DNA from: Minisyncoccota bacterium
Lineage (GTDB): Bacteria > Patescibacteriota > Minisyncoccia > Phycocordibacterales > UBA2100
Reading direction: 5' to 3'
Assembly (NCBI GenBank): GCA_043780835.1
Contig: JAYWCB010000011.1
Span: forward strand, 26,767 to 90,766
Length of the DNA: 64,000 nucleotides
In this document: positions 9,950-59,266 of the stretch, piece by piece
Layout: every line of letters begins with the position of its first letter
Position numbering within the stretch: position 1 is the first letter of the stretch
The notes under the pieces: generated by a model
Seen by the model: the letters and a program-made list of their open reading frames with translations, nothing else
What the model was told of the DNA's origin: nothing
Database searches by the model: none
Translations under genes and position numbers: made by a program

Positions 9950-11443
9950 ATGATGACCCGTCGCATATTGCAGGCATTATTTCTCGGGCTCGCTCTTATC
10001 GCGGTGCCTTCGCTCGCAAGTGCAGCGGAACTCTCATTTTCACCTGCGAGCGGGAGTTTTCCCAGCGGAAAAGAATTTGCGGTCAAAGTGCTGGTAAATC
10101 CCGGAGTTGATAGCATAAATGCCGCCGATGGAGTCATTGCATTCGATAAAGACGTTTTGTCAGTTTCAAGCGTTTCAAAAGACGGTTCGGCATTCTCCCT
10201 TTGGACTGCGGATCCTGCATTTTCTAATACGGACGGAACCATTGAATTTAGCGGCGGCACACCGACTGCATTTTCAAAATCGGGTACCGTTATTACGATC
10301 AAGTTCAAGGGCAAAAAAGTCGGTTCAGGCAAAGTGAGCTTCACGAAAGGTTCAGTACTCGCTGCCGACGGTAAGGGCACCAACGTGTATTCCAAAGGTG
10401 GCGAAGCGACATTTACCATCGAAGAAGCCGCGGCACCACCACCACCGCCGAAAGCCGTCGTTGCACCTCCTGCTGAAGTACCGCCTTCGGGTGAAGCGTT
10501 CGGCGGTTCTCCGCCTATCGCGCCGACGATGACCTCACCCACGCATCCCAAGCCTGAGAATTATTACGGTACGAGCACCGTAACTGTCGAGTGGAAAATC
10601 CCGCCCGACGTTATTGGGATCAAGATGCTTTTTTCAGATAAGGATACTGCGACGCCGAATGTTCTACTGAAAGCGGATGCGTCGTCTTCAACTCAGCGCA
10701 ACGTAGGTGATGGTGTGTGGTATTTTTACCTCCAATTTAAAAACGAGGCAGGGTGGGGAGAAGTCGGTAAACGAAAAATAATGATCGACACGGTGCCGCC
10801 TGCCGAATTTCAGATCGCACTCCTTGATCAGGGAGACGATGCAACGACTCCAAAAATAAGCATGAAAACAACTGACGACCTGGCCGGGATGGATCGGTAC
10901 GAAATATATTTTAATGACGCATCCGTTGGTACCGTAAAAGAGGCGGATCTCGGAACGGGTTTTTTGATACCACCGCAAGCGGGCGGTCCGACGAAAGTAA
11001 AAGTGAAGGCGTACGACAAAGCGGGAAACATACGTGAATCATCAAAAGAACTCACGCTTCCGCTCGTTGCGAAGCCGGTAAAAGGTGCCAAACCCGGTGA
11101 GGTGGTCGCGGTTCCCGGATTCTTTACGACCGAGCGAATACTGCTGCTTATATTCGCATTTGTAATCGGTGTACTTTCAACACTCAATCTCCGAAACCGA
11201 AAATCGAGCGAACGAGATCGTCTCCATATACTCACCGAAGTGGCGGCGGTGCGGGATAAAAACGATAAAATTTTCTCCGCCATGCGTGAAGAATTCGAAC
11301 AAATGGTTCAAGATTTGGATGAAAAACCTCAACTCACGCCGACTGAGCGCGACTTACTTGAGCGCATAAAAGAAGTGCTCGAGGTCTCTGAAGAAATCGT
11401 CGATACGGGAATGGACGCGCTCAAAAAGACGATACGGGGATAA
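9950..11443 (+). CDS. Secreted cohesin-domain protein with Pro-rich linker, C-terminal TM helix and coiled-coil tail
   Basis: Signal peptide MMTRRILQALFLGLALIAVPSLASA, then a cohesin-like beta-sandwich (ELSFSPASGSFPSGKEFAVKVLVNPGVDSINAADGVIAFDKDVLSV...DGTIEFSGG) and an APPPPPKAVVAPPAEVPP linker. It ends with a C-terminal TM (ILLLIFAFVIGVLSTL) and a charged helical tail. Confidence 0.7.
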   Translation: MMTRRILQALFLGLALIAVPSLASAAELSFSPASGSFPSGKEFAVKVLVNPGVDSINAADGVIAFDKDVLSVSSVSKDGSAFSLWTADPAFSNTDGTIEFSGGTPTAFSKSGTVITIKFKGKKVGSGKVSFTKGSVLAADGKGTNVYSKGGEATFTIEEAAAPPPPPKAVVAPPAEVPPSGEAFGGSPPIAPTMTSPTHPKPENYYGTSTVTVEWKIPPDVIGIKMLFSDKDTATPNVLLKADASSSTQRNVGDGVWYFYLQFKNEAGWGEVGKRKIMIDTVPPAEFQIALLDQGDDATTPKISMKTTDDLAGMDRYEIYFNDASVGTVKEADLGTGFLIPPQAGGPTKVKVKAYDKAGNIRESSKELTLPLVAKPVKGAKPGEVVAVPGFFTTERILLLIFAFVIGVLSTLNLRNRKSSERDRLHILTEVAAVRDKNDKIFSAMREEFEQMVQDLDEKPQLTPTERDLLERIKEVLEVSEEIVDTGMDALKKTIRG

Positions 11444-11522
11444 CTTTTATAGAAGTGAGGTTTTTACCCCTCAAAATTGTCCAGTCTTGGCTTGAAATCA
11501 GGACGAAATAACGAATTGCGGG

Positions 11523-11531
11523 TGATAAAAT
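11523..11531 (+). promoter_or_regulatory. Candidate extended -10 element (TGaTAAAAT) for the giant gene
   Basis: GTGATAAAAT lies 57 nt upstream of the ATG at 11588, with no convincing -35. Weak, sequence-only call. Confidence 0.25.
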
Positions 11532-11587
11532 GAGGGGACGGATTTATACCGCATGCGGTGTGTTTTCCGTACACAAAAAAATACCCT

Positions 11588-14500
11588 ATGTTCCCGAGTG
11601 GAATTCTCAAAAAAAGACGCGCGCAACGAGTGCTCGCGGCACTTTTGGTTTTGGGAATTCTTGCATACCTCGCATATTCTTCGAGCGATCTTGTTGGGGC
11701 ATTTGGTGGCACGCGCGAAGCACACATATTTTCTACATCGGTTTCCGCTCAGGGGTGGGATCATTCTGAACGTGCCATATCCCAAGACCTTCCGGCGAAT
11801 GCACCGCTTGAATCGTTCAATGACACAAATTCCGCAGTCGCGGTCATGGTTGCGGTACCGAATGCAAATTCTGGAGGCAGCGGAAACGACACGGGAACTA
11901 CCACGCCTCAAGAAATACACTCCGATGCGTCTTCGACGCCTACGATCGCAACTTCTTCTCCTTCCGAAACGACAGCGCCCCAACAGAGTGCACCCAATCC
12001 CGCGCAACCCGCTCAGATCGTCGCGCCAGCTACGCCGCCGGTTGTAACGCCACCCACAGATACGCCTGCGATCCATGAATCGATTCCGTCGCAAACGCCT
12101 CCGGCAACTGATCCGGGACCCACTTCGTTGATCAGACAATTTATTCATACAACTGAGGAGATTGTGTTTGCACCGTTCGTACCAACGGTCTTTGCAACGA
12201 CGAGCGATGCCTCATCTTCGCCGGACGCGCCGTCGCTTCCGCAAGATTCGACGTCGAAGGATGAATACGTAGCGAGCTGCTTCTTGCAGCAGACCGAGTG
12301 TCATACGCTCGCGTTTTCCGGATTCGGTGTTACGGGTGACATTACGAAAAAGCATTTCAAACACGCACTGGTCAATTTTTCGTTTGCCGATTCCGCGGGA
12401 CGTGAGAACGGAACGCTCGATGACAAGCTCGAGGTTCGCTATTACCACGCCGGTAAATGGAAACAGGCCGGCGAAATGTATCTCAATAAGGACCTTTCGA
12501 ATGAATCGAACGGTGGCTATTTCTCCGCACCGCTCGACGATATAACCGATTGGCAATCGCTCGACGATTTGAAAGTGGTCATAGAGTACGTGCGCGCCGA
12601 CACCGGTAAATCCACCCGTTTGTATCTGGACAGTCTGTGGATCAACGCGCAGTACACGGATACGGTATTGAATATTTTGAATGGTTCGGCAGATCAAGCG
12701 ACGGACTCATCCGATAATGTCTCCCTTTCATTACGGGGACAGGATGACGCGCATCGTACGCTTGTGCTCCCCGACGGAAACAATATTTCATTCAATTTCA
12801 CAGACGATCTCGATGACGGGCTGCCGATGCGTTCAGATCGAAAAGTGTATACGTCTGATGCCTCATCAAGCGACGGGTTATTCCGATCGACCGTATACGT
12901 GAGCGTCTCGAATCCGGGAGATAGCCCCGACTCGTTTACGTGGTCCGGAGCGTTTTTCGAGGGGAAGGGCAGTGTGACCGGCATTTCGCAGTTTTTACGC
13001 AATGTTGCGAGTTCCACAGAAGCATCGGTTCAGAACGACGTCACATATCTCTGCGATTCGCAGTGGCAGAGTGCAACGACTACTGGCAGTTACAGTTGCT
13101 CAGCGACAGGGGAAGTACATCAATGTTCATGGTTGAACGCGACGAAACAAAATTGTCTCGAGTCCGACGTGACGGTGGCGACAAGCAGCAGTGTCGCGTA
13201 TCTCAATGATTGGGTACCACAGGATATCGAGGTCGTGCAAAGTGCCGATGACACGAAACTACCCAACGGCTACAAAACGAAGAACCGCACTCGTAAATCA
13301 TTTGATATTCTACCGGGCCAAACATTGTATTTCCGTGTGCAGCTCGAAACCACACAGCCTGATCCGCAAAAGTTTTATCTGTATGTAAACGGCGGTACTA
13401 AATCCGGCGATCTTGAATCGGCACGTCTTAAAAAAGAAAGCGATCTCGTCGCACAAAAAAACCGGAAAGGCACCGTGCACAAAGGGGTGCCGCATGTGAA
13501 GCGTGCGCAACTCAATGACCAGCTGTCAGAAAAGACAGAATTCAATGCCGACGACCGGCCCTCGTTTGAATTTAAGTTCAAGACGCAGCGCGGATTATTT
13601 ACACGAATCAAAGACCGATTGCTCGGAACGAAGGTTGCGTTTGAAATCAAAGATACGAAAATCGAAGATGCCAACGGCGATGAGACACGGTTACCGGTCG
13701 ACATCAATTACGGAAGCGACGAGACCTGGAATCTGACGCTCGGCTCGCCGACGAGGGAAATTAAACCGGGAAAATACACGATCGATATGACAATCATCGA
13801 GGCGGGTCATACATACACCGATACGGTCGACTTCTTTTGGGGAGTGCTTGCAGAGAACACGGACAAAGCGACGTATGAACCTGGGGAAAACGCGCATTTT
13901 GAAATGGCTGCACTGACCGACAGCGGTAACACGATGTGCGATGCATCATTAGTGCTTTCCATCACCGCGCCCTCGGGCGAGATCACCGACGTGCCGGTGC
14001 AAAACGGACTCGGCTGCGGTATGAACAATGTGACTGATCAGCCTGACTATTTTGCAGACTACACAGTCGATGAAATCGGCACGTCGACGGTTACTCTTTC
14101 CCGTCTTGATCAGAATGGCTCCGTCATTAATTCCGTCACGGATGTGTTTTATGTGGAAGTGGCCCCCGCCCTTTCGGTATCTCGTACCGGTCCGACGCGT
14201 ATCTACCCAATCGCAACATATCCGATGTCGATTGAAGTCACGGCGAACGAGGCATTTACCGGAACCGTTACAGAAAGCCTGCCCGAAGGATTCACTGTCC
14301 CTGATGCCGGGGGTGCCACACTCACGCGAGACAAAGGCGTTGTGTATCTTACCTGGAACGTGTCGCTCGCGGTGGGCGAAACTGCGGATTTCTCCTATGT
14401 GTTTGACGCGCCCGATGCGAGCCCGTATCTCTACTTGCTCGGACCGCTCAAATTTACGCGCTCAGATGGGTCTGGTTTTGAAGAAGGCCGCACGTGGAAA

Positions 14501-17500
14501 GTTGCGTCCGACGCAGTGCCTGTTGCAACCGGTGTCGCATGGCTCACCGGCACCTCAACCACAAACGGAAATGATCTTAACAACAACACGCCATTCGCGC
14601 TGCAATTTGATAAATCAGAAGATTACGACGATGCGTATTATTCACACTCCACATCTACGAGTCCGTCGCGGCTCACGGTCAATATTGCCGGTGATTATTT
14701 GGTTGCGGTCAACGTACCGTGGGAGCGAGCAGACACGAGTAGAAATCCGACAACACTCGAAGTCGATATCCGTGTAAACGGCGCAAAACAAACCGTAGGC
14801 GTCGGTCGCAGTTACACGCTTACCCGAAGCGGCGTCGGTGAATCATCGAGTCACGTGTACGCACTCGTCAGAAATTTGAGCGTCGGTGACTACATTGAGG
14901 CATATTCGCACACAATCACAACAGTTACCGCGGGAGATGTCATGCTTGTAGGAACGCGCGCATCAATGTATGTGGAATATATTCCCTCGACTGAAACTGT
15001 GTACACCGCAACCGCAACGACAACCGTCGCGGATACAAATCTGAACACAACCGGTGCAACAAAAGTGGTGTGGTACGACGGACGCAAGGATACCGGATAT
15101 ACGCACGCAAATGCAACCACATCCTCACCGGAGAATGTCACGATTGCCGCGACGGGAGATTACATGACATTTATTAATATTCCGCTCAACGGCGCTGTTG
15201 CCGGAGAAAACGTGCGGGCACGCGTGGTACTCAACGGAGTCGTCGTGACCGGAGGAAATTTCAAGCAGGGCTATATTTCAAATTCGGCGGGAGCAACACA
15301 ATCATCGCTGCAATGGAGCGGTGTGGTACACGCAACATCTTCGAATTCGGTATTCACCGTCGATGTGCAGCAGGAAGGCGCCGCGGGGACCATGACCGTG
15401 GGAAGTGACGTCGGATCGTTGTTTATGCAAAAACTGCCGTCAACTGATGTATATTTCGGCAGCGGTCAAACGCTTTCAGGCGGTGGAACCAACTTCAACA
15501 TTACGCCGGCACAATCGATCCGGTATGCCACGGATACCGTTGCCGACCTTAATGCGTACACACACTCAACGACAACAAATTCCCACCAAGTTACGGTAAA
15601 AAAAGCAGGGGATTACCTCCTCGCGATTAATGATTCGCTCTCGGGCGCAGTCACACGCGGCAACATCATTATTCAAGTGCAGAAGAACGGTGTCGATGTA
15701 AGCGGAGCTGCGACAAAAAATCATTACATGTCAGGTGTGAGCACGCATTCGGAATATTCCGGATCGCTTGTCTTTATGCTGCGCGATCTGGCGGTGAACG
15801 ACGTCATTTCGGTAACAACGGTTCTCACAGGAACTGCAGGTACGGTAACCGCAGATGAGGGCGCATCGATTATGTTGTGGCGGAAAAATCCACAAAGCTT
15901 GTATCAGCAAAACACCTATCGTTGGTACGCAAACGTGAACGGGGAACCGCCCACGGATCCGTGGCCATCCGGCGCAGTCGATGTGCTTCAGGGTGATCCG
16001 ATCACCAACGGTATTCCCATAAAGTCGTCCGATGTAGTGCGTTTGCGGATGAACCTCCTTGCGGTTTCAACCACAACCGCATTTGCCGACTCATTTAAAC
16101 TGCAATACGCGGCCGGATCAACGTGCTCGGCGGCACTTTCTTGGACGGATGTAGGAGCAATCGGAAGCGGTGCAATCTGGCGGGGATATGATAACGCCGG
16201 CGTGACGAATAACACGACACTCTCTTCAACCACACTCACAAATTCAAATGTAAAAGAATCGTATGTCGAACAGAACCCCTCGACGACCACGCCCAACGGC
16301 GTGGGCACCGGACAAAATGCCGAGTACGACTGGACGCTGCAAGACAACGGCGCGACTGTCGGCGGAGATTATTGTTTCCGTATGGTGGACGCAACGACCG
16401 GTCAAGGACTCAAAAGTTATCTTGATTATCCGGCGCTCACCACAAACTCGACGCCGGACATACCGGTACTGGCGGCCCCGTTCGATAACGAGAAATCGAC
16501 CAGTACCACGCCATGGTTCGATTTTGCCGCTGCAGAAATAAACGGAGAGAATGTGCATTACGAAGTACAGGTTTCGACCGATCCCAATTTCGGTACAACG
16601 CTTTTGGATCGCGATTCGTTTACAAATTATGTCGAGTTCCAAAACACGACGTCTCCCGCGAATAAATCCCCGTTCAATCAATCCGATAAAATACGATTTA
16701 TTCCGACAACCGCGCTTTCAAACGGGACAACCTACTGGTGGCGAGTCCGGGCAAAAGACCCGACAGGCACCAACACCTACGGAAGTTGGTCGATATCGCG
16801 CAGTGTCACGGTGGATACCTCGGTGACTGTCTCCACATGGCATCAAACAACGCAGGCGCAGTTCCTCGAAGATCAATTGCTGAGTGCGACAACGACCATT
16901 GCCAATGACGTGCAAATCAGCGGCGTACTTGCAACCAGTACCGTCATTTCGCCACAGATTAATTTCAGTGGTATGACCTACGGTAATACGTGGGGATCAT
17001 TGACGTGGAACGATGCACACGTGCTCGGCACGATCATGTACCAGGTGCAATATTTTACATCGACCTCATCGTGGGCACTGATTCCTGATACGGATTTACC
17101 GGGCAATTCGCTCGGCACATCCACACAACCTATTTCACTTGCCAATCTCGATGTGACAACGTATGGCGCACTGCGCGTTGTTGCAAATATGACGAGAACA
17201 ACGGGAACTCCAACACTCTTTGACTGGACCGTAAACACCGCGCTCTCCGTCACGAAACCGGTGTTATCAAAACCCTTCGATAATGAAAAGACCGCAACAA
17301 CGACGCCAACATTCCAATTTATATCAACAGATCCACAGAGCGATCGTCTTCGGTATCAAGTCGAATGGTCGACCGATTCGGCGTTTGGTACCGGAACATT
17401 CCGCATATCCGGCACAAATGCGGGCTTTAGTAATACCGCCTCGTCAACCGACACCGATCCATTTACACAGAACAATACGATACAGTTTCAACTACAGAGT

Positions 17501-20500
17501 GCAGACGTGCTCACCAACGGAACGACGTATTGGTGGCGTGTTCGGGCAATTGACCCGACGGGAGGTAACGCGTTTTCACAGTGGTCTGCGGGGAACAGCT
17601 TTACGGTCGACACATCGCTTGCGGTTTCGACGTGGTTCCAGACAACACAGGCACAATTTGCGAAAGACACGTTCATTCGTACGATAGCGTCGACTTCGAA
17701 TTCGGTGATTTCATCCGTCGATACGGGAAAAATCGCAATCTTCCGTACTGCGACGGCAGGTGAGGCACTGACGACATCGGTATTCACACATGGATTCGAT
17801 ACGACTGTACGGCGCGATGATGTGTATGCGCTTTCAGGCACAACGACTGTCGGATTGAAGAAAGGTCACTATGCAGTGCTCTATAGTACGCGATTTGATT
17901 CCACCGGCGGCACAAACAGAACGGATGCACAAACGAATTTGAATATTGCTGGCGTGAACAGTCCAATCGGATGGTCGTCGTCATATCTGCGCCGCTTAAA
18001 CGGTGCGCAAGAAGGATTCAATGCGGGCGGTGGCATTATTTATGCACCTGCAGACTCGACGCAAGTGCTGTTGCAATCATTCCGAACTGATGCCAACGTC
18101 GCAGCGACAGAGACGCGTGTCGCAAGTACTACGCTGCAATTTGTAAAACTGGACGATGCATGGGATTACGTGCGACTGGGAAAGAAAGTTAAACAAACCG
18201 GACCGACGTCCGCCTCGTGGTTGACGATTTCGTATGATCGTCAGGATGAACTCGACACAGGATCGTTTGATCATACTGTCGGATCAGGCAACATCACACT
18301 CAAGAGTGTTGGTCACTATCTTATATTTGCAAACACGTACGGATCACTCGCAACCGGATCCACCATTCCATCTCAAGTGAAACAAAAAATCATCTTGAAC
18401 GGTGCAGATGTGGAAGGCAGCTTCACGACGGTCTATATGAACGGCAACGCCAACGGAAATGCCGTCTATCAAGGTGCGGCCGCAATCGGTATGATTATTG
18501 AATCAACAACCACAAACACCGTGTTGAACGTGCAGCTTGCTCGATCGATCGGCACCTCAGCGTGGTCAATCGATGCAGATAATACGGGTGCGTATGTAGA
18601 TCGCACCGGTGTGACGATTGTAAAAATTCCGGACGGGAGCTTCGTTCGTTTGCAGAATTCAAGCGCGATCAATATCAATACCGCCACCACGAGTGCATAT
18701 GTATGGGATACCGAGAACGAAAAAGACGCCTCATTTACGCACAGTAATTCGACAAACAACTCCCGCATTACGGCGACGGTTGCCGGTGACTACCTCTTGT
18801 TCGGTAACCTTTTTGCCCAAGGAGCGAACTTGACCGACGGTGAACCGGGATTCTCGTGGGCGAAAAATGCAGCGCTCATTCCGTATGGCGTCTCGGGAAC
18901 ATACAGTGCAAATATAACAACCAGCGATGCCGGAAATTGGTCGGGTATGATCATGCCGAGCGTTGTGAACGGTGATTTCTTCGAGTTTATGTCGGAAGCA
19001 TACGGGCTTGCCGGGTCCATGCCGGGCGATCGTAAGGCGCTCGAAGGTATGCGAATCGCATCACTCACCGAAGCCGACACCAACCCGGTCACTGTCGAAT
19101 CTCAAAGTATCAATTTCTCCGATGGCACCGGTCCGAAATGGGCAACGTTTTCGTGGAGCGCAACACAGCCCGCGTCGACTTCGCTCAAAATGCAATTGGA
19201 ATACTTGAACGCCTCGGGAACATACGCACTCGTTCCGGATAATGCCGGCTTTATCGCGGGGTATCTCAACTCTGTGGGTACTACATCGACCTCTACTATT
19301 AACATTTCAGGCCTCTCGCGTATTACATACGCCACCATTCGCGGTCTTGCGACCTTTACGTGCGGTAACAACAATTGTCCGACACTCGATGATTGGACCG
19401 CAAGTTGGGCGCAAGGAATTCAGATTTCAGGTACGGCCAAGAAATTCGATGAAACCACGAATGTAACGAGCGGTACCGTAGCGGTTGCGGTGAACGGCGT
19501 GCTGCAAGCGGGAAAAACAGGTACGATTTCTGCCGGTGTGTGGACGATCGCAAACGTGACGGCTTTTACCGGTGATGTGATCACGGTCTATATTTCCGGC
19601 GCTGCTGATCCCAATGAGGCGGTTGCCGTTAGTAAATATCTTACGACCGGAGATGTAACCGGCATGGAGCTCTACGAAGATCATTTGTCACTCGGTTCAA
19701 ATGACAACCCGACACTGACGAATGCCGATATTGACCTCTATGATAATTCAACATCCGGCAACGAAGATATTTTCGACAATGTAACCGCAGGGCCCGATTT
19801 GCTCGTGTGTGCAATTACCGGCTGTTCCGGTAACAAATTATATATTCGCGTAGGAACCACCTTTGAGCCAAATGTCTCACTCAGTCGCAGTGTCACCACA
19901 AAGGATATTTCCATCAAAGGTATCCTCATCGCCGACGGCAACTCGATAAACGTAAGCGGCTCGTGGGCCGATAGCGGACAATTTGCGAAGGGCAATTCAA
20001 CCGTGAATTTCACCGCAACATCTACCACGGAAAGCGTTGACTTCACCGGTGCAACGTCAACGTCATTCAATAACGCGACGTTCGGTTCATCGGGTACTGC
20101 AACGTGGAACCTCTTGAGCGCACTCGACGTTACGGGCACGCTCACCATCAACAACGGTACGCTCTCACAAAACGGTAATCACCTCATTACGCTCTCCGGC
20201 GATCTCACGATCGGTTCGAGCGGTGCATTCACAAAAGGGACGGCATCCACCACGTTCAACGGTACGACATCAAAGATTTGGACCGATAGTAGTGCATCAA
20301 AACAAGATCTGGGCGATGTATTTATAGACGGCGCTGCAAAAACAGTGACGCTCGGTTCCAGCGTAAAGGCGACGAACATCACGATCGGAGCGGACGATAC
20401 GTTCAATTTGGGCGGTGCAAATACTGTCACCGTAAATGGTAATTGGACAAACAATAATGCGTTCGTGCCGCAAACCGGCACCGTGCTTTTCGCCGCAATG

Positions 20501-30336: not shown

Positions 30337-30366
30337 TTAACGGTGCGGAGTGCACTGTTTTTCGAT

Positions 30367-42233: not shown

Positions 42234-42400
42234 GAGCAATGCATATTCAGTGTATAGGTGATCTGCGCCCCCACAAGTAAAAAATGTGCTCAAGAGTGCA
42301 AAGGGATTCGTGCACTCATTTGATTGATACCCAAAAACTCACGAAAGTTGTCCACACCGAAAAATAGGCTAAAAACCTAGGGATTATACAATTGCTCTAT

Positions 42401-48601: not shown

Positions 48602-48608
48602 GACCGCT

Positions 48609-49013: not shown

Positions 49014-49015
49014 AC

Positions 49016-49486: not shown

Positions 49487-49488
49487 CT

Positions 49489-50826: not shown

Positions 50827-50858
50827 ACTGTGCATAAAAATACAATACTTTTCTTGCT

Positions 50859-52214
50859 ATGCTTGCGATATTCGTCTCTATGACATTGAAGAAAACGATA
50901 CTCCCGTTTTTTGTGTTGTGTATTCTTGCTGCGGGGCTTCTTCCATTCGTCGTGCGGGCGGACTCTGATCTCACCGTTTTGCCCATTGTTGTTGATGAAA
51001 AAGCAAAAGCACGCGATATCTTGAAAGAATCGGTCACGATCACAAATAATAGTGCGCGCGTGCTCCAAATATATCCGTCGGTCAACGACGTAAAACCGCA
51101 GGAAGGCCAAAGGGCATTTATTGAGGCACAAAGCGGCACCGAACGCTCTGACTCATTGGCCAATTGGATAGAAATCTCTCGCGGAGTCATTGAATTGAAG
51201 CCGAAAGAGTCAAAAGAGATTCCGTTTGTCATTCGTGTGAATCTCAATGCGGTCGCAGGCACCTATCACGCTGACGTTTCTTTCTATGAAGGCGGTAACC
51301 GTGAGGACGCCGAGAAAACGCACCCGCTCTCAGTCGTGACCGTAAACACCGAGGTGCAGGCGAATATAAAAGAGTCAATGCAGTTGAATAAATTTGTTAC
51401 GGATAGTTTTTTCTTCTCCGGAGATGACGTGTTGTTCAACTATCAGCTAGAGAATATCGGTAACCAGGAATTGAAACCGAAAGGGGAGATTCGTATTTAT
51501 GATCGCAAGGGCCACGAGGTTGCGACGGTGCCGGTGAACCCGGACGGCAAAAGCTTTACACCCGATCAGGCTGCACAGCTTGCAAGTGCATGGAGCGCAG
51601 CCAGAGGGTTCGGTAAATTCAAGGCGTTTCTCAATATAGATTACGGCAACGGTAACGGCTCGCTGCAGGATACTGTCTTTTTCTGGATTATTCCATGGCA
51701 GCAGTTGCTCGCAATTGTGGTGGTGAGCATCATTGGGATCATTGTGTCTGCGTTGTATTTCCACCGATGGCTTGAACAGCGTCACATGCAGCGCTTTGCG
51801 CTCGCAACCGGAATGCCAATGGCCGGAGCGGGTGTTGCAGCCATGCAAGCACCTCCTGGGATGCTCACACAGAAAAGACCCCCGCACATGACGACCGTCA
51901 TGCCGGTAATTCCAAAACAGGAGAAAAAGAGCTTCTTTTCACGATTTCGTCGCGCGAATAAGGCGCCCATCGTTGCAAGTGTGCAAAACACTTCGCCAAT
52001 TCCCACCGTGGTGCCGGCAGCTGCGCTGCTCACACCACCTGTGCATAATGCCGATCAATCACAAATTATTGTCCACGGGGAGGAGTCGGCATCTGCTCCG
52101 GTGCAGACGCTCGCGCCACAATCCAATCGCACCATCAATCTGTCGTCGACCAACATGGGCACGTCGCCGCAAAAAAACCCGGGGCGCGTGATAAATCTAA
52201 AAAACGGCTCATGA
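50859..52214 (+). CDS. Secreted protein, family B (DUF916-like architecture): signal peptide, beta-rich domain, C-terminal TM and long cytoplasmic tail
   Basis: Signal peptide (ILPFFVLCILAAGLLPFVVRA). The domain (LTVLPIVVDEKAKARDILKESVTITNNSARVLQIYPSVNDV...SLANWIEISRGVIELKPKESKEIPFVIRVNLNAVAGTYHADVSF) is followed by TM (LLAIVVVSIIGIIVSALYF) and a roughly 140-aa tail. Confidence 0.6.
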   Translation: MLAIFVSMTLKKTILPFFVLCILAAGLLPFVVRADSDLTVLPIVVDEKAKARDILKESVTITNNSARVLQIYPSVNDVKPQEGQRAFIEAQSGTERSDSLANWIEISRGVIELKPKESKEIPFVIRVNLNAVAGTYHADVSFYEGGNREDAEKTHPLSVVTVNTEVQANIKESMQLNKFVTDSFFFSGDDVLFNYQLENIGNQELKPKGEIRIYDRKGHEVATVPVNPDGKSFTPDQAAQLASAWSAARGFGKFKAFLNIDYGNGNGSLQDTVFFWIIPWQQLLAIVVVSIIGIIVSALYFHRWLEQRHMQRFALATGMPMAGAGVAAMQAPPGMLTQKRPPHMTTVMPVIPKQEKKSFFSRFRRANKAPIVASVQNTSPIPTVVPAAALLTPPVHNADQSQIIVHGEESASAPVQTLAPQSNRTINLSSTNMGTSPQKNPGRVINLKNGS

Positions 52215-53536
52215 TGCACAGTTTTCGCACGGTCTTTTTTACTGCACTCATCCTGTGCACATGGCTTTTCGGCATCACGAGTGTGTCCGCCCAGGAATCA
52301 CTCTCTGTTACGGTCACGCCGCCACTGTTTCAGCTCAGTATCGGTCCCGGTGAATCATGGACGAGCACGATCAAAGTTATCAACAATAATTCGTATGACG
52401 TACAGTATGCGCCGCAGGTCGTCGATTTTGAAGCGCAAGGGGAGACCGGCCAGGGAAAGTTTGTGCCGCTCATTAATGCGTTCGGAGGTGGCGAACAAAG
52501 CAGTAATTCACTCGGGAGCTGGATAGAAATTTCCAAAGATCCGGTGCTTATACGTTCTGGACAGAGCGCGCAACTCAATTTTACGGTCCATGTACCGCAA
52601 AACGCCGAACCGGGCGGGCATTACGCTGCGATCATGGTCGGACCCCACGAAGCAGATACCGCACAAGGATCGCACATGAAAATATCGAGCTATGTTACGT
52701 CGCTTATCATGGTGCGAATCAAGGGGGATATTGTGGAAAGCGGGCGTATTCGTGAATTCACGACTGATAGATCGCTCTATCAGAAGCCGGAAGCGCAGTT
52801 TGTTCTGCGATTCGAAAACACCGGCAATACGCACTTGCGCCCACAGGGTCTTATTACGCTTCACAACATGTGGGGAAAAGAGCGCGGTCAAGTGCTCATT
52901 AATGAGAAGAGTAATTTCGGCAACGTGTTACCGCACTCAATTCGCAAGTTCGAATTCACGTGGAATGGTGAAGACAGCCTATTTGATATCGGTTTATATA
53001 GTGCGGTCGTTACGCTCAACTATGGCGACGATGCGAAGCAAAATGCTTCCGCAACAAGTTATTTTTGGGTGGTCCCGGTGGTGCCGGTGACTATCACGCT
53101 CATCATAGTGCTTAGTATTGTGCTTATTCTAATGTGGTTTATACGACGGTATGTACGCCGCGCGCTCTCACTCGAGCATCTTCATGTCGCGGCTGGCGCA
53201 CACCCGAATGTGCCGGATCGCCAGGAACCGCCTATGATTGAACACGTCTCTACGCTTCGCGCGCTCGTGCAGCCCATAAAAGACGGTGTTGTTGACCTTC
53301 GAAGCGTCGGCACTGTTATTGAACAGAATGGGGTAGTCGCGACACCTACATATATTCGTCCGCTTACATTTGGCGGTTTTGTTCGCAAATACCGACTTTT
53401 CTTTGCTTTTTTACTGGTGCTCGCGGTACTTCTCGTTGGTATATCGCTCTATTTCAAGGCAGTGCTCGTGTCGCACCGTGATTTCCAAATCAAAGCAATC
53501 GCACCCGCGAGCAGCTCATCTGCCTCAGTTCGCTAG
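52211..53536 (+). CDS. Secreted protein, family B paralog (DUF916-like architecture)
   Basis: Signal peptide. The domain (LSVTVTPPLFQLSIGPGESWTSTIKVINNNSYDVQYAPQVVDF...GSWIEISKDPVLIRSGQSAQLNFTVHVPQNAEPGGHYAAIMVGP) is collinear with 50859 and 55094. TM VVPVTITLIIVLSIVLILMWF. Its start overlaps the preceding stop. Confidence 0.6.
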   Translation: MMHSFRTVFFTALILCTWLFGITSVSAQESLSVTVTPPLFQLSIGPGESWTSTIKVINNNSYDVQYAPQVVDFEAQGETGQGKFVPLINAFGGGEQSSNSLGSWIEISKDPVLIRSGQSAQLNFTVHVPQNAEPGGHYAAIMVGPHEADTAQGSHMKISSYVTSLIMVRIKGDIVESGRIREFTTDRSLYQKPEAQFVLRFENTGNTHLRPQGLITLHNMWGKERGQVLINEKSNFGNVLPHSIRKFEFTWNGEDSLFDIGLYSAVVTLNYGDDAKQNASATSYFWVVPVVPVTITLIIVLSIVLILMWFIRRYVRRALSLEHLHVAAGAHPNVPDRQEPPMIEHVSTLRALVQPIKDGVVDLRSVGTVIEQNGVVATPTYIRPLTFGGFVRKYRLFFAFLLVLAVLLVGISLYFKAVLVSHRDFQIKAIAPASSSSASVR

Positions 53537-53602
53537 TTTTCCACAGGATATCAACCGGGTTTTCCACCGACATATCCTCTGATCGAGACCGTTATCCACA
53601 TG
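53537..53602 (+). promoter_or_regulatory. Cluster of three DnaA-box-like 9-mers (TTTTCCACA, TTTTCCACC, perfect TTATCCACA) with an embedded inverted repeat
   Basis: TTTTCCACA at 53537..53545, TTTTCCACC at 53560..53568 and TTATCCACA at 53592..53600. AGGATAT and ATATCCT (53547..53553 and 53572..53578) form a 7-bp inverted repeat around the second box. A TATACT -10-like hexamer lies at 53643..53648 upstream of the gene at 53804. Confidence 0.35.
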
Positions 53603-53803
53603 GTTGTGCTTGATATCAACTGATTTGTCAACAGTATGCCGTATACTTTACCCATGCGAGTTTATTCGGCGCCGTACGTTTCTAGCTGCTTTGGTCGAGC
53701 AATAGCAGGTGGATGCGTATTTTCTCTCTAGGCGCAGAACAGATCGCTCATTAGAAGAAACTATTAGTACGCTTAAAAACAAACGACAGTTCAATTTATT
53801 TAT

Positions 53804-54955
53804 ATGAACGTATTCGAACAAGCAAAGAAAAATCCGATCGCATCGTTCTTGTCGTCGCCGATCGCGTTGGTTCTCATTATATCGACCCTCTTGTGGGCGA
53901 CAGGACTCCCGCTCTTGGTTTCGCGAGCCGACGCTGCGCAGCTCACGTTAGTGAGTGACACACTGACCGACTCTAATCCGAGTACCGCGAATCGCAACGT
54001 TATCAAATTCACATCAGCCACATCATCAATCGCAGGTCAGACTATAGCGATAGTGTGGGATCCAGTAGGAAGCGCGTTCTCACAAGTTGCACTTACCGCA
54101 ACGACGACGCAGATAACAGTCACCGGCATGACGCTCGTGACTACATGCGGTGGTGCTGCCGATGAAGTCACGGTACAGCAGGTATACACAGCGGGTAGTG
54201 AAGGTGTCGTATTTACGGTGTGTGCTACTGACACGGTGACCCCTGGAGCAAAGATCATTACCCTGGGAACATCCACGCCCTTCATTTCGAATCCTGCTGC
54301 CGCAGGTTCGTATCGGATTACTGTCACCGGCACAAATGGTGATACGGGAGAAGCGCGGGTCGCAATACTTCCACATGTAACCGTAACCGCTGCAGTGGAC
54401 ACCACGTTCACCTTTACTGTTGCAGGTCTCGCGACCTCAACGACGGTGAACGGTGATACGTTGACGGGTTCTACAACGGCCACGGTGATTGCATTCGGAA
54501 CGCTTGCTCCGACGGTTGCAAAGATAATGGGTCAACAGTTAAGCGTAACCACAAACGCATCAAACGGATTCTCCGTTACCGTTGTTGAGAATCAAAACCT
54601 CTTATCGGCAACGGGAGCAGACATTGACCTCTTCCAGGATGGCGCTGCTACCGCAGTTCCGATCGCCTGGGCGTCTCCCACAAACACACTTGCGGCAGGT
54701 GAAGCGAGTTATGGTCACATAGGTGTGACAAGCGAAGACACTACATTGTCCGCTGGCGCTGAATTCTCGGGCACAAAATATGCTGGTAACTTCAATACCG
54801 CGCGACAAGTGTTCTACAGCACAACGCCGGCCGATGGTACAACTGCCGGTGTAGGCACAACGAAAGTTGCGTACAAGGTAGAAATCGGTTCACTGCAGGA
54901 AGCAGGTTCTGATTACACCAACATCCTCACGTACGTTGCAACGCCGATCTTCTAA
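53804..54955 (+). CDS. Secreted protein, family A paralog; WxL-like C-terminal region (tentative)
   Basis: A signal anchor (IASFLSSPIALVLIISTLLWA), a Thr-rich beta domain, a C-terminal roughly 180 aa with PIAWASPTNTL, and the terminal YTNILTYVATPIF. Confidence 0.6.
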   Translation: MNVFEQAKKNPIASFLSSPIALVLIISTLLWATGLPLLVSRADAAQLTLVSDTLTDSNPSTANRNVIKFTSATSSIAGQTIAIVWDPVGSAFSQVALTATTTQITVTGMTLVTTCGGAADEVTVQQVYTAGSEGVVFTVCATDTVTPGAKIITLGTSTPFISNPAAAGSYRITVTGTNGDTGEARVAILPHVTVTAAVDTTFTFTVAGLATSTTVNGDTLTGSTTATVIAFGTLAPTVAKIMGQQLSVTTNASNGFSVTVVENQNLLSATGADIDLFQDGAATAVPIAWASPTNTLAAGEASYGHIGVTSEDTTLSAGAEFSGTKYAGNFNTARQVFYSTTPADGTTAGVGTTKVAYKVEIGSLQEAGSDYTNILTYVATPIF

Positions 54956-54975
54956 GCTCGAAAAACAGTCAAACA

Positions 54976-55003
54976 AAAACCCGCGAACTACGCGGGTTTT
55001 TGT
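54976..55003 (+). terminator. Rho-independent terminator
   Basis: AAAAACCCGCGAACTACGCGGGTTTTTG is a perfect 7-bp GC stem with a T-run. Confidence 0.65.
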
Positions 55004-55093
55004 TTGGAATTTTATCCAGAGTAGCGCTGCAAGCCGATGGCAAGCCGATGGCAAGCCGTGGTACAGTTCACGCATAATAATAGCCGCATTGAT

Positions 55094-56158
55094 ATGAGAG
55101 ATTCCCGCACCACATACGTTTTTTACGGTTTTTTGATCGCATTTTTAACATTGGTCGGTGCGCAGAGTGCAGGCGCGCAAGCGCAGGGGATCTCTATTAA
55201 ACCCGCAGTGATTGAAGATCGGGTTGCCCCGGGTGCTGTGTACAACTACTCAATCAAAGTCACCAATGTTTCTGATGCGGAAAAGACATATTTTCTCAGT
55301 GCGCAGGATATCAAAGGGCTCGATAACGGCGGGCTTCCGATATTCGCAACCGATAGCGAAAAGACGCCATACGAACTGAGTTCATGGATCTCGCTTTCAG
55401 TAACATCGGTAACGATCGCCCCGCATCAGGAAAAAGAAGTTTCTTTTTCGGTTCGTGTGCCGCAGGATGCTTCACCCGGCGCGCACTTTGGGGGAATTTT
55501 CCTCGACGACACACCGGCGAAATTACACTCAACCGGATCTTCTATCGCTATGAAAGTCGGACCGATTATCAACCTGCGCATTGCGGGGAATGCGACAGAG
55601 GACGCACAAATGCGAGAATTCTCGACTGCGCACATTGTGTACGGGTCAGCGGGAGATGTGTCATTTCAGGTGAAGGTCGCAAACCTCGGTAATGTGCTGG
55701 TGCGACCACGCGGATTTATCGAAATTACTGACATGCGCGGATCCAAAATCGATGTTATTAAACTGAATGATGCGGGCGCCGGAGTTTTTCCTGCTGCAGA
55801 CAAGATCTTTAGTGTGGCGTGGAAATACGACAGGTTTGCATTTGGTCGTTATCAAGCGGTCGCGAGCTTGGTGTACGGAGAAGATGGGCAGAAAACTATC
55901 AGTGCAGCAACGAGCTTCTGGGTATTGCCGTTGAAACCGATTCTCACGGTGCTTGGTTCCATCTTTGTGGTATTACTCATACTCTACGTACTCGTACGCA
56001 CCTATATCTCCCGCAAACTTCGCGAGATGGGCGGTAGCAGGAGTGATTTATATGCGAAGCGGAATCAGTCTCCGGTGCCGCGACTGCTCGTCGTTGCGCT
56101 TTCTTTGCTATTCCTTGCGATTGTGTTTCTCGTGCTCTTGTTCCTCATGTTTGCCTAA
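55094..56158 (+). CDS. Secreted protein, family B paralog (DUF916-like architecture)
   Basis: Trimmed to MRDSRTTYVFYGFLIAFLTLVGAQSAGAQA. The domain is GISIKPAVIEDRVAPGAVYNYSIKVTNVSDAEKTYFL...SSWISLSVTSVTIAPHQEKEVSFSVRVPQDASPGAHFGGIFL. TM (ILTVLGSIFVVLLILYVLV) and a tail containing a second hydrophobic segment. Upstream lie a TTATCCAGA motif at 55011 and a TGgTACAGT extended -10 at 55059. Confidence 0.6.
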   Translation: MRDSRTTYVFYGFLIAFLTLVGAQSAGAQAQGISIKPAVIEDRVAPGAVYNYSIKVTNVSDAEKTYFLSAQDIKGLDNGGLPIFATDSEKTPYELSSWISLSVTSVTIAPHQEKEVSFSVRVPQDASPGAHFGGIFLDDTPAKLHSTGSSIAMKVGPIINLRIAGNATEDAQMREFSTAHIVYGSAGDVSFQVKVANLGNVLVRPRGFIEITDMRGSKIDVIKLNDAGAGVFPAADKIFSVAWKYDRFAFGRYQAVASLVYGEDGQKTISAATSFWVLPLKPILTVLGSIFVVLLILYVLVRTYISRKLREMGGSRSDLYAKRNQSPVPRLLVVALSLLFLAIVFLVLLFLMFA

Positions 56159-56161
56159 ACA

Positions 56162-56557
56162 ATGCGTATGGCGAGACGCAAGCATACATACGCTGACGAA
56201 AAAGAAGTCATTCGGCGAACCGTGGTGGTTATAGCGTTGGTTTTGTTTATCTATGCCACGTCGATTGATTCACCGCGCGCGCTTGTGCAGACAGCTGGCT
56301 CAATGGTGGGGAGCGCGGTTGTGGGAATGTCGGCCGGCGTTGAGGCGAATCCGTATAACAAAGTTGCAGCAGAGCTTTCTCAAAAGCAATCTGAGCTTGA
56401 CGCGCGCGAAGCCGCGCTCAATGCGTCGCCCGGCGGATCACTTGCGGGTACGCGGGGGCTCGCCGCAGCAAGTTTTTGTATCAGCATCATCGTGCTCATA
56501 CTCGTGGCCGCGAACTACTATATGGATTTTCGGCGAGGCAGGCGATTATTCGCGTAA
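56162..56557 (+). CDS. Hypothetical small membrane protein (2 TM)
   Basis: Starts 4 nt after the preceding stop. TM helices VVVIALVLFIYA and AASFCISIIVLILVAANYY. Confidence 0.4.
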   Translation: MRMARRKHTYADEKEVIRRTVVVIALVLFIYATSIDSPRALVQTAGSMVGSAVVGMSAGVEANPYNKVAAELSQKQSELDAREAALNASPGGSLAGTRGLAAASFCISIIVLILVAANYYMDFRRGRRLFA

Positions 56558-56593
56558 GTATCTTTTTGTCACGCTATAATAGAGCGAATGAAT

Positions 56594-56703
56594 CCCGTTA
56601 GAAATCGCGGACGCGTGAAATTGAGCATTTTAAAGGTCGATTCTATGAGATCCTATAAATTTAGGACGGGACTCTTTATGGTCCGCGTCCTATTTCTAAC
56701 GGG
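56594..56703 (+). promoter_or_regulatory. Long imperfect inverted repeat (20-nt arms, ~70-nt spacer) ending exactly at the start codon of the FGE-domain gene
   Basis: CCCGTTAGAAATCGCGGACGCG (56594..) pairs with CGCGTCCTATTTCTAACGGG (..56703); the 3' arm abuts the ATG at 56704. An inner hairpin TAGGACGGGA...TCCGCGTCCTA is also present. The ribosome-binding region would be sequestered. Confidence 0.4.
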
Positions 56704-57549
56704 ATGAAAGCGCTCCTTCGATGGATCGTGGTCACACTCTGCACGGTCGTGCTCACGACTGTCGGTTTGAATGCGTTTGATAACAGAGACACGCCGCAAA
56801 ATTCAATGCTCGGCGCCGCATTCAGCGCAGTTGCGGGCCCGGCGAGTAAATGTCCGGCCGGAATGACATTTGTCGGCGCGTCAGGCGGCGGTTTTTGTAT
56901 CGACAAGTACGAAGACTCTGTTGGAGATTCATGTAACAAAAAAGATCCTGGCAGTAAAACCGATTCGAGCGATAATCTTGCAATTACTGCATGCAAACCA
57001 GCGAGCGCAGCTAAGAAATTGCCGTGGAGAAATATTTCCCGCGATCAAGCCGAGCTCGCATGCGCGCGCGCCGGAAAGCGACTGCCGAGCGCCCCGGAGT
57101 GGTATAAAGCCGCGCTCGGCACGCCCGATAGCGATACACCAAACGCTACCAGCTGCAATATCGGTCTCAAGGGCGCAGGATCGCTTGATATGACCGGTGC
57201 CCGCACTGACTGTGTATCGCCCGCAGGTGCGTACGACATGGTAGGCAACGCGTGGGAGTGGATGCAAGACACGGTGACTGACGGCGAGTTTCATGGAAAG
57301 AAATTGCCGACGGAAGGGTATATAACGGGAATCGACGGCGACGGCACACCAATTGCAACGAATCATGATATGCCCGATACATCTTTTTTTAGCGACTACT
57401 TTTGGATTGATCCCACAGATACGCGCGGAATATTGCGCGGTGGCTATTGGAACAGTCAATCGGATGCTGGGCAGTATGCGATCAATATTACCGTTCCGCC
57501 GTCGTTCTCCGGTGAAGCTGCAGGATTCCGATGCGTGAAAGATATTTAG
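56704..57549 (+). CDS. Membrane-anchored FGE-sulfatase (SUMF1/C-type-lectin fold) domain protein
   Basis: N-terminal TM (IVVTLCTVVLTTVGL), then the FGE-fold hallmarks CIDKYE, AGKRLPSAPEW, AYDMVGNAWEWMQD, RGGYWNS and C-terminal GFRCV. Confidence 0.8.
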   Translation: MKALLRWIVVTLCTVVLTTVGLNAFDNRDTPQNSMLGAAFSAVAGPASKCPAGMTFVGASGGGFCIDKYEDSVGDSCNKKDPGSKTDSSDNLAITACKPASAAKKLPWRNISRDQAELACARAGKRLPSAPEWYKAALGTPDSDTPNATSCNIGLKGAGSLDMTGARTDCVSPAGAYDMVGNAWEWMQDTVTDGEFHGKKLPTEGYITGIDGDGTPIATNHDMPDTSFFSDYFWIDPTDTRGILRGGYWNSQSDAGQYAINITVPPSFSGEAAGFRCVKDI

Positions 57550-57550
57550 T

Positions 57551-59266
57551 ATGAAAAGACTTTTCAGTTTTGGTGTTTTCTTTATTATCGTATGTACCGG
57601 TCCGCATACTGCGAACGCGGCATACATGTCTCCGATATCGGATTTATTTTCAACGTCGAATCCTGGAGCCGATGCAGCGCATATTATTACTTTTACGGTA
57701 CGCAATGCTGTTCCCGCGTCGGGCACCATACGTATTACACCGGAAGGCGCCTTCTTCATTCCCGCGAGTTTCGATTTCACCGACGTGGATGTGGCCGTTT
57801 CAAACGGGGGCCCGTATGTCGATCGAAATCTTGCGGCCTCGGCAAGCGGAAGCGCGGACGGGGTTACCGTTATAAGCGGTTCAACGGGCTCAATAATCAT
57901 TACGCTTTCTTCTGCGAGCGGCATTGCCGCCAATTCGTCGGTACGAATCATTCTCGGAACCAATGCGACGTTTCAGCAAACAGGCACGGTCTCACCGATA
58001 AATCCCATCGTACCGGCGTCATATCGCGTTCGTATTGATACGGAAAACGCAGGTGTCCACATCGATGACGCAAAAGCTATGGTTGTGGTGGTGTCGCCCG
58101 TAACACTCACAGCCATTGTGAATGACAATGCGCCGCAAATACTCAATGCGCTTCCGACCGGCATTCTTCCTGCAGGAAGCAACGTGATCGAGCTTTCTTT
58201 TCAAACGAATGTTACGGCAACGTGTCGATATGCGACATCGTCCGGTGTTGCGTACGGGTCAATGACACACACCTTTTCTTCCGTTGGGGGCCAGTTGTTT
58301 TATAGCGTCGTCTCCGGGCACGTTGATAACACCACGTACAGCTACTTTATTCGCTGTCGCGATACCGCGGGCGCGACGGCCCAAACAGATTACGAGCTCA
58401 CCTTTGCCCTGGGCGTGACTCCGACAAATACATCATCGGACGGCAATACGCCAAACATTATTACTGCAGGGCCACCGAGCGGTTCGGGAGGTTCCGGCGG
58501 AGTGGGAGAGTTTGCAGGTGGAAGCGCATCACTGTTCCAATCGTCAATTACGCTCTCCGGTCGAGCGCCCGCAAATAGTGCGGTCACCATATTGAAAGAC
58601 GGCAAACAGCAATCGTCGGTGCAGGCAACAGCAAGCGGAGCATTTGCGGCGACTATCACGAGACTTGATCGCGGCACGTACACACTTGTTACCTTTGCGC
58701 TTGATGACAAACAACGCAAAACGTCACGTTTTTCCTCTACGCTCACACTGAATGCTGGTACAAATAATACGATTTCGAATGTACTTCTTTCTCCAACTAT
58801 TGCAGCAGATGGGGAGTCAGTTCCAATCGGGGAAAACATGCATGTTGCGGGCTTTGGCGTGCCTGACACGATCGTGAATATACTGTTACGTGATGTGCCC
58901 GCTCCAGGAAAGGTGGGTCCACCAAAAGAATACACCGCCTCTACAACACAAACGGGCACATGGGAGTATTCGATTCCGGCCAAAGATCTCAAGCGCGGTA
59001 CCTATGAAATAAAGGTCAAAACGGTGACTCCGGAGGCGTCGAGTGAATACAACGCCCCCGCATATGTGGGTGTGGGCCAAAAACCATCGGCACAAGCCGA
59101 TACCGGCAATCGCTCGGACATCAATAAAGACGGCAAAGTCAATCTCGTTGATTTCTCTATTTTGCTCACGCATTGGAATGAGAGCGATCCCAACGCGGAC
59201 ATAAATCTCGACGGTACCGTCAACCTGGCTGACTTCTCGATACTGCTCTTCAACTGGACAGGGTAG
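57551..59266 (+). CDS. Secreted protein with Ig-like (Big) domains and a C-terminal dockerin
   Basis: Signal peptide MKRLFSFGVFFIIVCTGPHTANA. Ig-like beta domains are similar to those in 37588..38727. The C-terminus SDINKDGKVNLVDFSILLTHWNESDPNADINLDGTVNLADFSILLFNWTG is a duplicated dockerin Ca-binding repeat. Confidence 0.65.
   Translation: MKRLFSFGVFFIIVCTGPHTANAAYMSPISDLFSTSNPGADAAHIITFTVRNAVPASGTIRITPEGAFFIPASFDFTDVDVAVSNGGPYVDRNLAASASGSADGVTVISGSTGSIIITLSSASGIAANSSVRIILGTNATFQQTGTVSPINPIVPASYRVRIDTENAGVHIDDAKAMVVVVSPVTLTAIVNDNAPQILNALPTGILPAGSNVIELSFQTNVTATCRYATSSGVAYGSMTHTFSSVGGQLFYSVVSGHVDNTTYSYFIRCRDTAGATAQTDYELTFALGVTPTNTSSDGNTPNIITAGPPSGSGGSGGVGEFAGGSASLFQSSITLSGRAPANSAVTILKDGKQQSSVQATASGAFAATITRLDRGTYTLVTFALDDKQRKTSRFSSTLTLNAGTNNTISNVLLSPTIAADGESVPIGENMHVAGFGVPDTIVNILLRDVPAPGKVGPPKEYTASTTQTGTWEYSIPAKDLKRGTYEIKVKTVTPEASSEYNAPAYVGVGQKPSAQADTGNRSDINKDGKVNLVDFSILLTHWNESDPNADINLDGTVNLADFSILLFNWTG

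Follow-up and report, generated by a model that had tools for sequence, protein, structure and literature searches.

Introduction

Cohesin and dockerin modules are found outside cellulosomes in all three domains of life, mostly with obscure function, and one protein of Archaeoglobus fulgidus bears both modules. Bacterial and archaeal modules of this non-cellulosomal kind have long been on record (Peer et al., 2009, as represented in citing papers including PMC9012536), and archaeal pairs among them are proven binders, as cited in PMC9012536. The present analysis concerns six proteins, here called A to F, that bear such modules in a stretch of 64,000 nucleotides from a Minisyncoccota bacterium (assembly GCA_043780835.1, contig JAYWCB010000011.1, positions 26,767 to 90,766; the whole stretch is referred to as the window), which belongs to the candidate phyla radiation (CPR, or Patescibacteria). 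Here the modules may serve as a small, fixed set of cognate anchoring pairs within a conserved surface-fibre gene cluster.

A second system with which the locus is compared is the Pam pilus of Candidatus Mycosynbacter amalyticus, the source of the NF058581 model (Troman et al., bioRxiv 10.64898/2026.03.03.709456). The Pam pilin has an N-terminal sandwich of nine strands, a linker strand that is donated, and a C-terminal domain that is Ig-like but truncated; assembly is aided by PapD-like chaperones with a C-terminal transmembrane (TM) helix, and the fibre is terminated and anchored by the TM protein PamR. Pam pilins are reported mainly in Saccharimonadia and Microgenomatia, and the preprint is silent on cohesins, dockerins and ABC transporters (Troman et al., bioRxiv 10.64898/2026.03.03.709456).

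A literature search found no paper on cohesin-dockerin modules in CPR bacteria or on a dockerin-anchored donor-strand pilus. An earlier reading made without database searches (the sequence-only reading) had described the island as a cellulosome-style surface scaffold and as not a described system; the latter claim is fair for the cohesin-dockerin part in CPR bacteria, although the modules themselves have long been known outside cellulosomes.

Cohesin and dockerin modules

The six proteins are encoded at window positions 9950-11443 (A), 37588-38727 (B), 38766-39695 (C), 39692-40678 (D), 40659-41441 (E) and 57551-59266 (F). The sequence-only reading had assigned cohesin-like domains to A, C, D and E, and Pfam searches, paralogy and AlphaFold/Foldseek comparison agree on one module in each. 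Residues 38-146 of A matched the Pfam family Cohesin (PF00963) with 27.4 bits, above the gathering score of 24.1, C reached 15.3 bits, which is below that score, and the Pfam search gave no PF00963 match for D and E. Nevertheless, D and E are counted as cohesins because the N-terminal domains of A, C, D and E are 30-35% identical paralogues, in an alignment free of internal gaps, and because PF00963 is present on many orthologues of E and A. More than 630 full-length homologues of A were found, mostly with PF00963, and some of these are already named "cohesin domain-containing protein" by NCBI; the 97 homologues of E have the same length and architecture, and many carry precomputed matches to PF00963, to Dockerin_1 (PF00404) or to both.

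The fold search, which covered E alone, points in the same direction. An AlphaFold2 model of E built from 63 homologues (mean predicted local distance difference test, pLDDT, 81.6) has, by its structural matches, the cohesin fold, a nine-stranded beta-sandwich (jelly-roll): in a Foldseek search against the Protein Data Bank (PDB) all 50 matches listed were cohesins (best E-value 2.6e-9, template-modelling score up to 0.80). Among the matches listed are the non-cellulosomal cohesins 2jh2 and 2vo8 of Clostridium perfringens and 2xdh of A. fulgidus, as well as the cohesins of OlpC (4dh2) and OlpA (3ul4). A profile of the four cohesins gave weak cohesin matches to PDB sequences (E-values 0.1-1.4) together with a spurious nanobody match, a result superseded by the fold search.

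When all six frames of the window were searched with hidden Markov models made from these modules, exactly four cohesins and three dockerins were found, and neither module was found in the two giant open reading frames (ORFs) of the island. The 74 cohesin domains of the window and 23 related loci (see below) fall into four orthologous clades, with identities of 42-55% within and 23-32% between clades, and the nearest neighbour is of the same cohesin type for 74 of the 74 domains.

Duplicated dockerin repeats end B, E and F, as the sequence-only reading had proposed, so that E has both a cohesin and a dockerin. All three dockerins match PF00404 above its gathering score of 22.9 bits (B, 23.4; E, 24.5; F, 31.0). 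Each stands at the exact C-terminus and has two loops of the form D-x-[ND]-x-D-(G)-x-[VI]-[NT]-x-x-D, with a helix after each; the tandem arrangement of two segments of approximately 22 residues, each a calcium loop (positions 1, 3, 5 and 12) with its helix, is evident from the sequence, and calcium binding is predicted. In the model of E, the dockerin helices comprise residues 220-231 and 248-259. The dockerins of B and F belong to one subtype (class 1), marked by DFSI..L..W in its first helix and by DFSI.LF.WTG at its C-terminus, and that of E belongs to a second (class 2). In both the B and the F family, the dockerin is the most conserved segment of the protein.

In an exhaustive search with the B/F-type dockerin profile, 21,950 representative proteins were matched at an E-value of at most 0.001, and cargo labels were given to the 137 representatives listed. 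Among these, 76 were F-like and 40 were B-like, the other 21 being fragments or multi-dockerin proteins; the labels are best BLAST matches, and some of the labelled proteins are multi-dockerin proteins that match in the dockerin region only. With 116 of the 137 listed representatives thus B- or F-like, the class-1 dockerin appears to be tied almost only to two cargo families, and cargo diversity appears minimal and fixed. When homologues were sought with the dockerin profile in a word-indexed search, nothing longer than fragments of 93 residues came back, and these are uninformative on cargo.

Architecture and topology of the proteins

Protein A (9950-11443, plus strand) has a signal peptide, a cohesin (nucleotides 10025-10426), a proline-rich linker, Ig-like domains and a TM helix at residues 397-415. 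C (38766-39695, plus strand; an alternative start of the ORF is TTG at 38715) comprises a signal peptide, a cohesin (38832-39269), an Ig-like domain and a C-terminal TM helix, and D (39692-40678, plus strand) a signal peptide, a cohesin (39758-40165), an Ig-like region and a C-terminal TM helix. Hydropathy analysis, in which TM or signal segments were called at a 19-residue threshold, gave an N-terminal signal-like segment and a single C-terminal TM helix for A, C and D. These three are type-I membrane proteins, each presenting a single cohesin on the distal tip of its Ig-like stalk. The TM helix of A is followed by a charged cytoplasmic tail of about 80 residues (residues 416-497, nucleotides 11141-11440), which by eye has the look of a coiled coil and could couple the surface anchor to something intracellular.

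The dockerin proteins are built differently. B (37588-38727, plus strand) consists of a signal peptide, Cys-rich DUF4215 repeats, Ig-like domains and a dockerin (38578-38724), with matches to Pfam Dockerin_1, DUF4215 and Big_13 and to TIGR02232. F (57551-59266, plus strand) has a signal peptide, a pilin-like N-terminal beta-sandwich (residues ~22-180), a flexible strand-like linker, Fn3/Ig-like domains and a dockerin (59117-59263). E (40659-41441) is, as a correction to the strand, encoded on the minus strand; it has an N-terminal TM/signal helix, a cohesin (40875-41288), a linker and a class-2 dockerin (40662-40811). B and E have an N-terminal hydrophobic segment only; F has no segment at the threshold used, and its N-terminus reads by eye as a short signal peptide. 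No further anchor was found by hydropathy in B, E or F. Thus, the claim of the sequence-only reading that all these proteins are secreted or membrane-anchored is upheld, as is its description of the dockerin cargo as Ig/Cys-repeat proteins. B and F are Sec-secreted proteins for which the conserved C-terminal dockerin is the only candidate attachment device. Because the cohesin carriers are fixed in the membrane and the dockerin carriers are not, the arrangement is the one expected of a tether.

Conserved gene order

Two sets of related loci were compared. Scanning species-representative genomes with the E family yielded 23 loci, and two look-ups of F-like proteins together with a metagenome scan with the F family yielded 82 further loci. 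In 21 of the 23 loci, as far as the contigs reach, the genes stand in the order Fn3x4 protein, ABC ATPase, MacB permease, 635-residue protein, chaperone-like protein, B, C and D, with E on the opposite strand, and this order is held down to 39% identity in E. L023 and L024, which at 31% identity to E are the most distant of the loci, have their genes on one strand in a variant order. B is followed by C in every locus that contains B, and A is always preceded by LepB and Hsp20 genes and followed by a giant gene.

Of the 82 further loci, 69 reach far enough downstream to be informative, and in 60 of these a same-strand cohesin gene is at most two genes downstream of the dockerin gene (median distance 552 bp). 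The patterns in the second set are F-Hsp20-A (35 loci), B-C (12), F-C (8) and B-Hsp20-A (3); a cohesin gene at most two genes downstream was seen in 44 F-like loci, and the adjacency is kept with F identity down to 27%. On the other side, 53 loci include upstream DNA, and 44 of them have a chaperone-like gene at most four genes upstream of the dockerin gene. The string met most often comprises pilin-like, chaperone-like, 131-residue protein, none to three genes with an FGE domain, F, Hsp20, A and giant, and it runs on into the Fn3x4, ABC and MacB genes in L037 and L050 and, in L037, also to the 635-residue protein.

In the window, F (region 57551-59810) and Hsp20-A (9424-11443) are some 46 kb apart, unlike in most relatives. 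The string shared by the relatives indicates that the two ends of the interval 9950-59266 of the sequence-only reading are one system, permuted in this genome. Across deeply diverged relatives, dockerin genes have cohesin genes directly downstream and pilin and chaperone-like genes directly upstream; the layout is that of a conserved system and no chance cluster. Two metagenome contigs (L087 and L106) carry B, C and then six tandem A-like genes, each with a single cohesin, a local expansion of the membrane cohesin anchors.

Pilus-like genes and the hybrid nature of F

The region 49489-56158 has the look of a Pam-like pilus operon in a member of Paceibacteria, with two pilin-like genes and three membrane-anchored chaperone-like genes, and was overlooked by the sequence-only reading. 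Residues 299-445 of the pilin-like protein at 49489-50826 (plus strand) match CPR_Pam_pilin_C (NF058581 of NCBIfam) over the full length of the model (31 bits, E-value 2e-7, cut-off 55), and 15 of the 16 pilin-like C-terminal domains of the window and the related loci match it at an E-value of at most 0.01 (best 2.4e-12). The second pilin-like protein (53804-54955, plus strand) has a C-terminal domain homologous to that of the first and an N-terminal domain homologous to that of F. Between the two lie the chaperone-like genes 50859-52214 and 52211-53536 (plus strand), whose products match Pfam WxLIP_PGBD weakly and are composed of a signal peptide, a pair of beta domains and a TM helix at the C-terminus; after the second pilin-like gene comes a further chaperone-like gene (55037-56158, plus strand), with C-terminal TM helices and a WxLIP_PGBD match of 36 bits (gathering score 27.3). 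Together with 36584-37579 (plus strand), a two-domain chaperone-like protein with a C-terminal TM helix and weak WxLIP/CARDB matches that is encoded directly upstream of B, these proteins have WxLIP_PGBD matches and, by hydropathy, a topology that fits Pam chaperones.

F combines features of a pilin with those of a dockerin protein. Its residues 21-191 align with the N-terminal domain of 53804-54955 (28% identity, E-value 5e-6), including the VT(L/V)TA strand that follows, and AlphaFold2 models this region confidently as a beta-sandwich (pLDDT 93.5), after which comes an unstructured tail. Where the pilins have the acceptor C-terminal domain, F carries Fn3/Ig-like domains and the dockerin. A fold search with the N-terminal domain of F returned only generic adhesin-like beta-sandwiches (TTHA1873, Cna, BslA and MSCRAMMs). 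No PamR-like protein (N-terminal strand, two Fn3 domains and a C-terminal TM helix) was seen in the window by Pfam and hydropathy; its only multi-Fn3 protein, 30343-31806, is without a C-terminal TM helix.

Proposed mechanism and alternatives

The cohesin and dockerin modules are best read as a small, fixed set of cognate anchoring pairs in a conserved CPR surface-fibre cluster, which would tether fibre and surface proteins to the membrane; the probability of this reading is put slightly above one-half, at about 0.55. After export, the calcium-loaded dockerins of F and B would plug into the membrane-anchored cohesins, and this pairing would tether F and B to the cell without a wall anchor. On the basis of gene adjacency, F would pair with A and B with C, and E could act as an adaptor or extender. 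Attachment to a host cell is the probable biological role.

A more tentative proposal, which is distinctly less probable than the tethering as such, is that a donor-strand-exchange pilus of Paceibacteria is fastened to the cell by the cohesin-dockerin bond, F terminating the fibre and A holding F. A subunit that donates a strand and is unable to accept one would end the fibre. F keeps the Pam-pilin-like N-terminal domain and the linker strand and is without the acceptor, so that it might be the last, chain-terminating subunit. Since F has these features and no PamR-like protein was seen in the window, we infer that F could be the proximal terminator and A the anchor; the bond between F and A would then be the pilus-to-membrane anchor and take the role ascribed to PamR in the Pam preprint. 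Still more speculatively, B, whose gene stands behind those of the 635-residue and chaperone-like proteins and ahead of those of C and D, might be the counterpart of F in a second module of smaller size.

Several observations weigh against these proposals. The matches of 49489-50826 to NF058581 range from 31 to 36 bits (E-values 2e-7 to 8e-9), below the cut-off of 55; the PDB set used for the fold search with F is without any Pam entry; and the linker of F is poorly conserved in sequence. The assignment of partners from the dockerin sequences failed because those of B and F are too alike and overlap, and the pairing was left to gene adjacency. Seven cases, which constitute the window's own lineage, have a redoxin gene after F, a rearrangement having split F from Hsp20-A. 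The scheme gives no role to the MacB/ABC, Hsp20 and FGE-domain proteins, and it leaves the attachment of the giant proteins unaccounted for, the C-terminal domain common to the 635-residue protein and giant protein 1 having no relation to the Pam C-terminal domain that could be detected.

The sequence-only reading saw in the island a cellulosome-style scaffold, in which the cohesin proteins would assemble a large, mixed complex of diverse dockerin cargo, the giant adhesins included. That a single island holds four cohesins and three dockerins next to giant surface proteins, that E has both modules, like an adaptor scaffoldin, and that six A-like cohesin genes stand in tandem in L087 and L106 would agree with such a complex. 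However, the window and the related loci hold one cohesin per protein and no multi-cohesin scaffoldin, and a single dockerin gene has one or several cohesin genes after it. The giants are without a dockerin and are therefore no cohesin cargo, and dockerins of the B/F subtype are borne almost exclusively by two cargo families. Pfam found no SLH (S-layer homology) domain, the anchors being C-terminal TM helices in place of the wall anchoring of a cellulosome. Among the called proteins of 9950-59266, no glycoside hydrolase or other carbohydrate-active enzyme family and no carbohydrate-binding module (CBM) family was matched by Pfam; the absence of glycoside hydrolases had been noted by the sequence-only reading itself, and it too speaks against the scaffold that this reading proposed, which is now quite improbable.

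It may be asked whether the modules pair at all. The cohesin-like module could be a distal Ig-like or ligand-binding domain and the dockerin a calcium-stabilised cap or a binder of host or cell-wall material, the two having no more in common than an operon. Orphan cohesin-like and dockerin-like modules without a known partner are widespread (Peer et al., 2009, as represented in citing papers including PMC9012536), the cohesin profile matches PDB sequences weakly, and the pairing is here deduced from gene adjacency. Such independence would be difficult to reconcile with the fact that 60 of 69 informative loci keep a dockerin gene and a cohesin gene adjacent, over F identities down to 27%, with the dockerin being the most conserved segment of B and F, or with the specificity of the fold match (50 of the 50 listed PDB matches); moreover, B and F have no other means of retention on the cell, and A, C and D are anchored in the membrane. 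Unpaired modules are accordingly considered unlikely. Contacts between cells, in which the dockerins of one CPR cell bind cohesins on a neighbouring CPR or host cell, or the reverse, would imply adhesion without self-anchoring. [quoted passage not shown] Both partners stand side by side in one genome and are conserved together, and B and F would diffuse off without a partner on the producing cell, so that purely intercellular binding is very doubtful. Tethering of B and F to the cell that produces them thus remains the preferred reading.

Origin and other genes of the island

The window has a GC content of about 51% and contains five tRNAs. Its island of secreted and membrane proteins spans 9950-59266 and is flanked by the housekeeping genes LigA, GatA, LepB, Hsp20, PrfB, FtsE and FtsX (recognized by reading the translations, LepB and Hsp20 by Pfam). 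Identical or close proteins were found in metagenome-assembled genomes (MAGs) named Paceibacteria, Minisyncoccia, Adlerbacteria and Kaiserbacteria. From the names of these relatives, of which the nearest are Paceibacteria, Adlerbacteria and Kaiserbacteria, the guess of a CPR-like genome made by the sequence-only reading was correct. Several close third-party-annotation MAGs are titled "uncultured Candidatus Saccharibacteria", and others just as similar bear the names Paceibacteria or Adlerbacteria; "Saccharibacteria" seems to be a placeholder here and is not relied on.

In most relatives, the Hsp20 gene (9424-9900, plus strand; Pfam HSP20) separates the F-type dockerin gene from the A-type cohesin gene, and in the window it adjoins A; it apparently encodes a cytoplasmic chaperone, yet it is conserved within the string of surface-protein genes. 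Giant protein 1 (11558-29212, plus strand; 5884 residues), always encoded downstream of A, has Pfam matches only to DUF2341 and Ig_Rha78A_N, and its last ~208 residues are homologous to the C-terminus of the 635-residue Cys-rich surface protein (34599-36506, plus strand; E-value 3e-25). This common C-terminal domain, which belongs to no assigned family, was tried as a Pam-type acceptor and dropped (hhalign probability 2-4%, NCBIfam match in 0 of 20 sequences).

The conserved string to which the 635-residue protein belongs begins with a secreted protein of four Pfam Fn3 domains (30343-31806, plus strand), followed by an ABC ATPase with a long C-terminal extension (31811-33157, plus strand; ABC_tran) and a MacB-type permease (33291-34499, plus strand; MacB_PCD and FtsX). 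These are the best-conserved genes of the cluster: the Fn3 protein is 55-90% identical in relatives, and the ATPase and the permease are 64-94% and 72-95% identical in syntenic loci, respectively. Directly upstream of E, on the same minus strand, is the gene of a 278-residue N-terminally anchored protein (41457-42293) without a family match; it precedes E in most loci and was not found in L008, L014, L023 and L024. Just upstream of F, on the plus strand, the genes of a 131-residue membrane protein (56162-56557) and of a secreted FGE-sulfatase-domain protein (56704-57549; Pfam) are conserved, the latter position holding zero to three tandem copies in relatives (for example L040, L054 and L058).

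Significance and comparison with known systems

A compact, lineage-wide system with fixed gene pairs, two or three cargo families and a clear topological logic is an unusually tractable test case for non-cellulosomal cohesins and dockerins. In CPR biology, the proteins to which it draws attention may fasten pili or surface fibres to cells without an outer membrane and are candidate host-attachment machinery, and it would extend the range of Pam-type pilus genes to Paceibacteria. If correct, the pilus-anchor proposal would join two principles of assembly that had not been seen in combination before, and the cohesin-dockerin pair would gain a first defined structural role outside polysaccharide degradation.

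The non-cellulosomal pairs of A. fulgidus, of the glycosidase/toxin complexes of C. perfringens and of ANME resemble the window in having single modules, no large scaffoldin and no cellulose degradation. The window differs from them in that the cohesin carriers are type-I membrane proteins, the cargo consists of two fixed non-enzymatic families, and strict dockerin-then-cohesin gene pairs lie in a pilus-like cluster conserved across a CPR class. In ANME, unlike in the window, dockerins are often carried by a solute-binding protein, and there are proteins with several cohesins (PMC9012536). OlpA and OlpC of Clostridium thermocellum are alike in principle to what is proposed here, since one cohesin on a cell-bound protein captures a dockerin protein at the surface. 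In that type of system, anchoring is by SLH domains or by sortase to the wall, whereas the window anchors by a C-terminal TM helix and is without dockerin-bearing enzymes, CBM and primary scaffoldin.

The Firmicute clusters with WxL/DUF916 proteins share WxLIP_PGBD, two beta domains and a C-terminal TM helix with the chaperone-like proteins of the window; in contrast, the partner proteins in the window are without any Pfam family listed at an E-value of 0.1. No cohesin or dockerin is known from these Firmicute clusters. The window resembles the Pam pilus system in its pilin-like proteins with a C-terminal match to NF058581, its adjoining two-domain proteins with a C-terminal TM helix (compare PamC and PamD) and a Sec-only assembly logic. 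The differences are that the matches in the window are below the NCBI cut-off, that the lineage is Paceibacteria and not, as mainly for Pam, Saccharimonadia and Microgenomatia, and that the cluster, with no PamR-like protein seen, ends in F, the fusion of a pilin N-terminal domain with a dockerin, and then a cohesin-TM protein. While the modules themselves belong to known families, the single-cohesin TM anchors and their fixed, non-enzymatic cargo, located within Pam-like pilus clusters across Paceibacteria, are new here.

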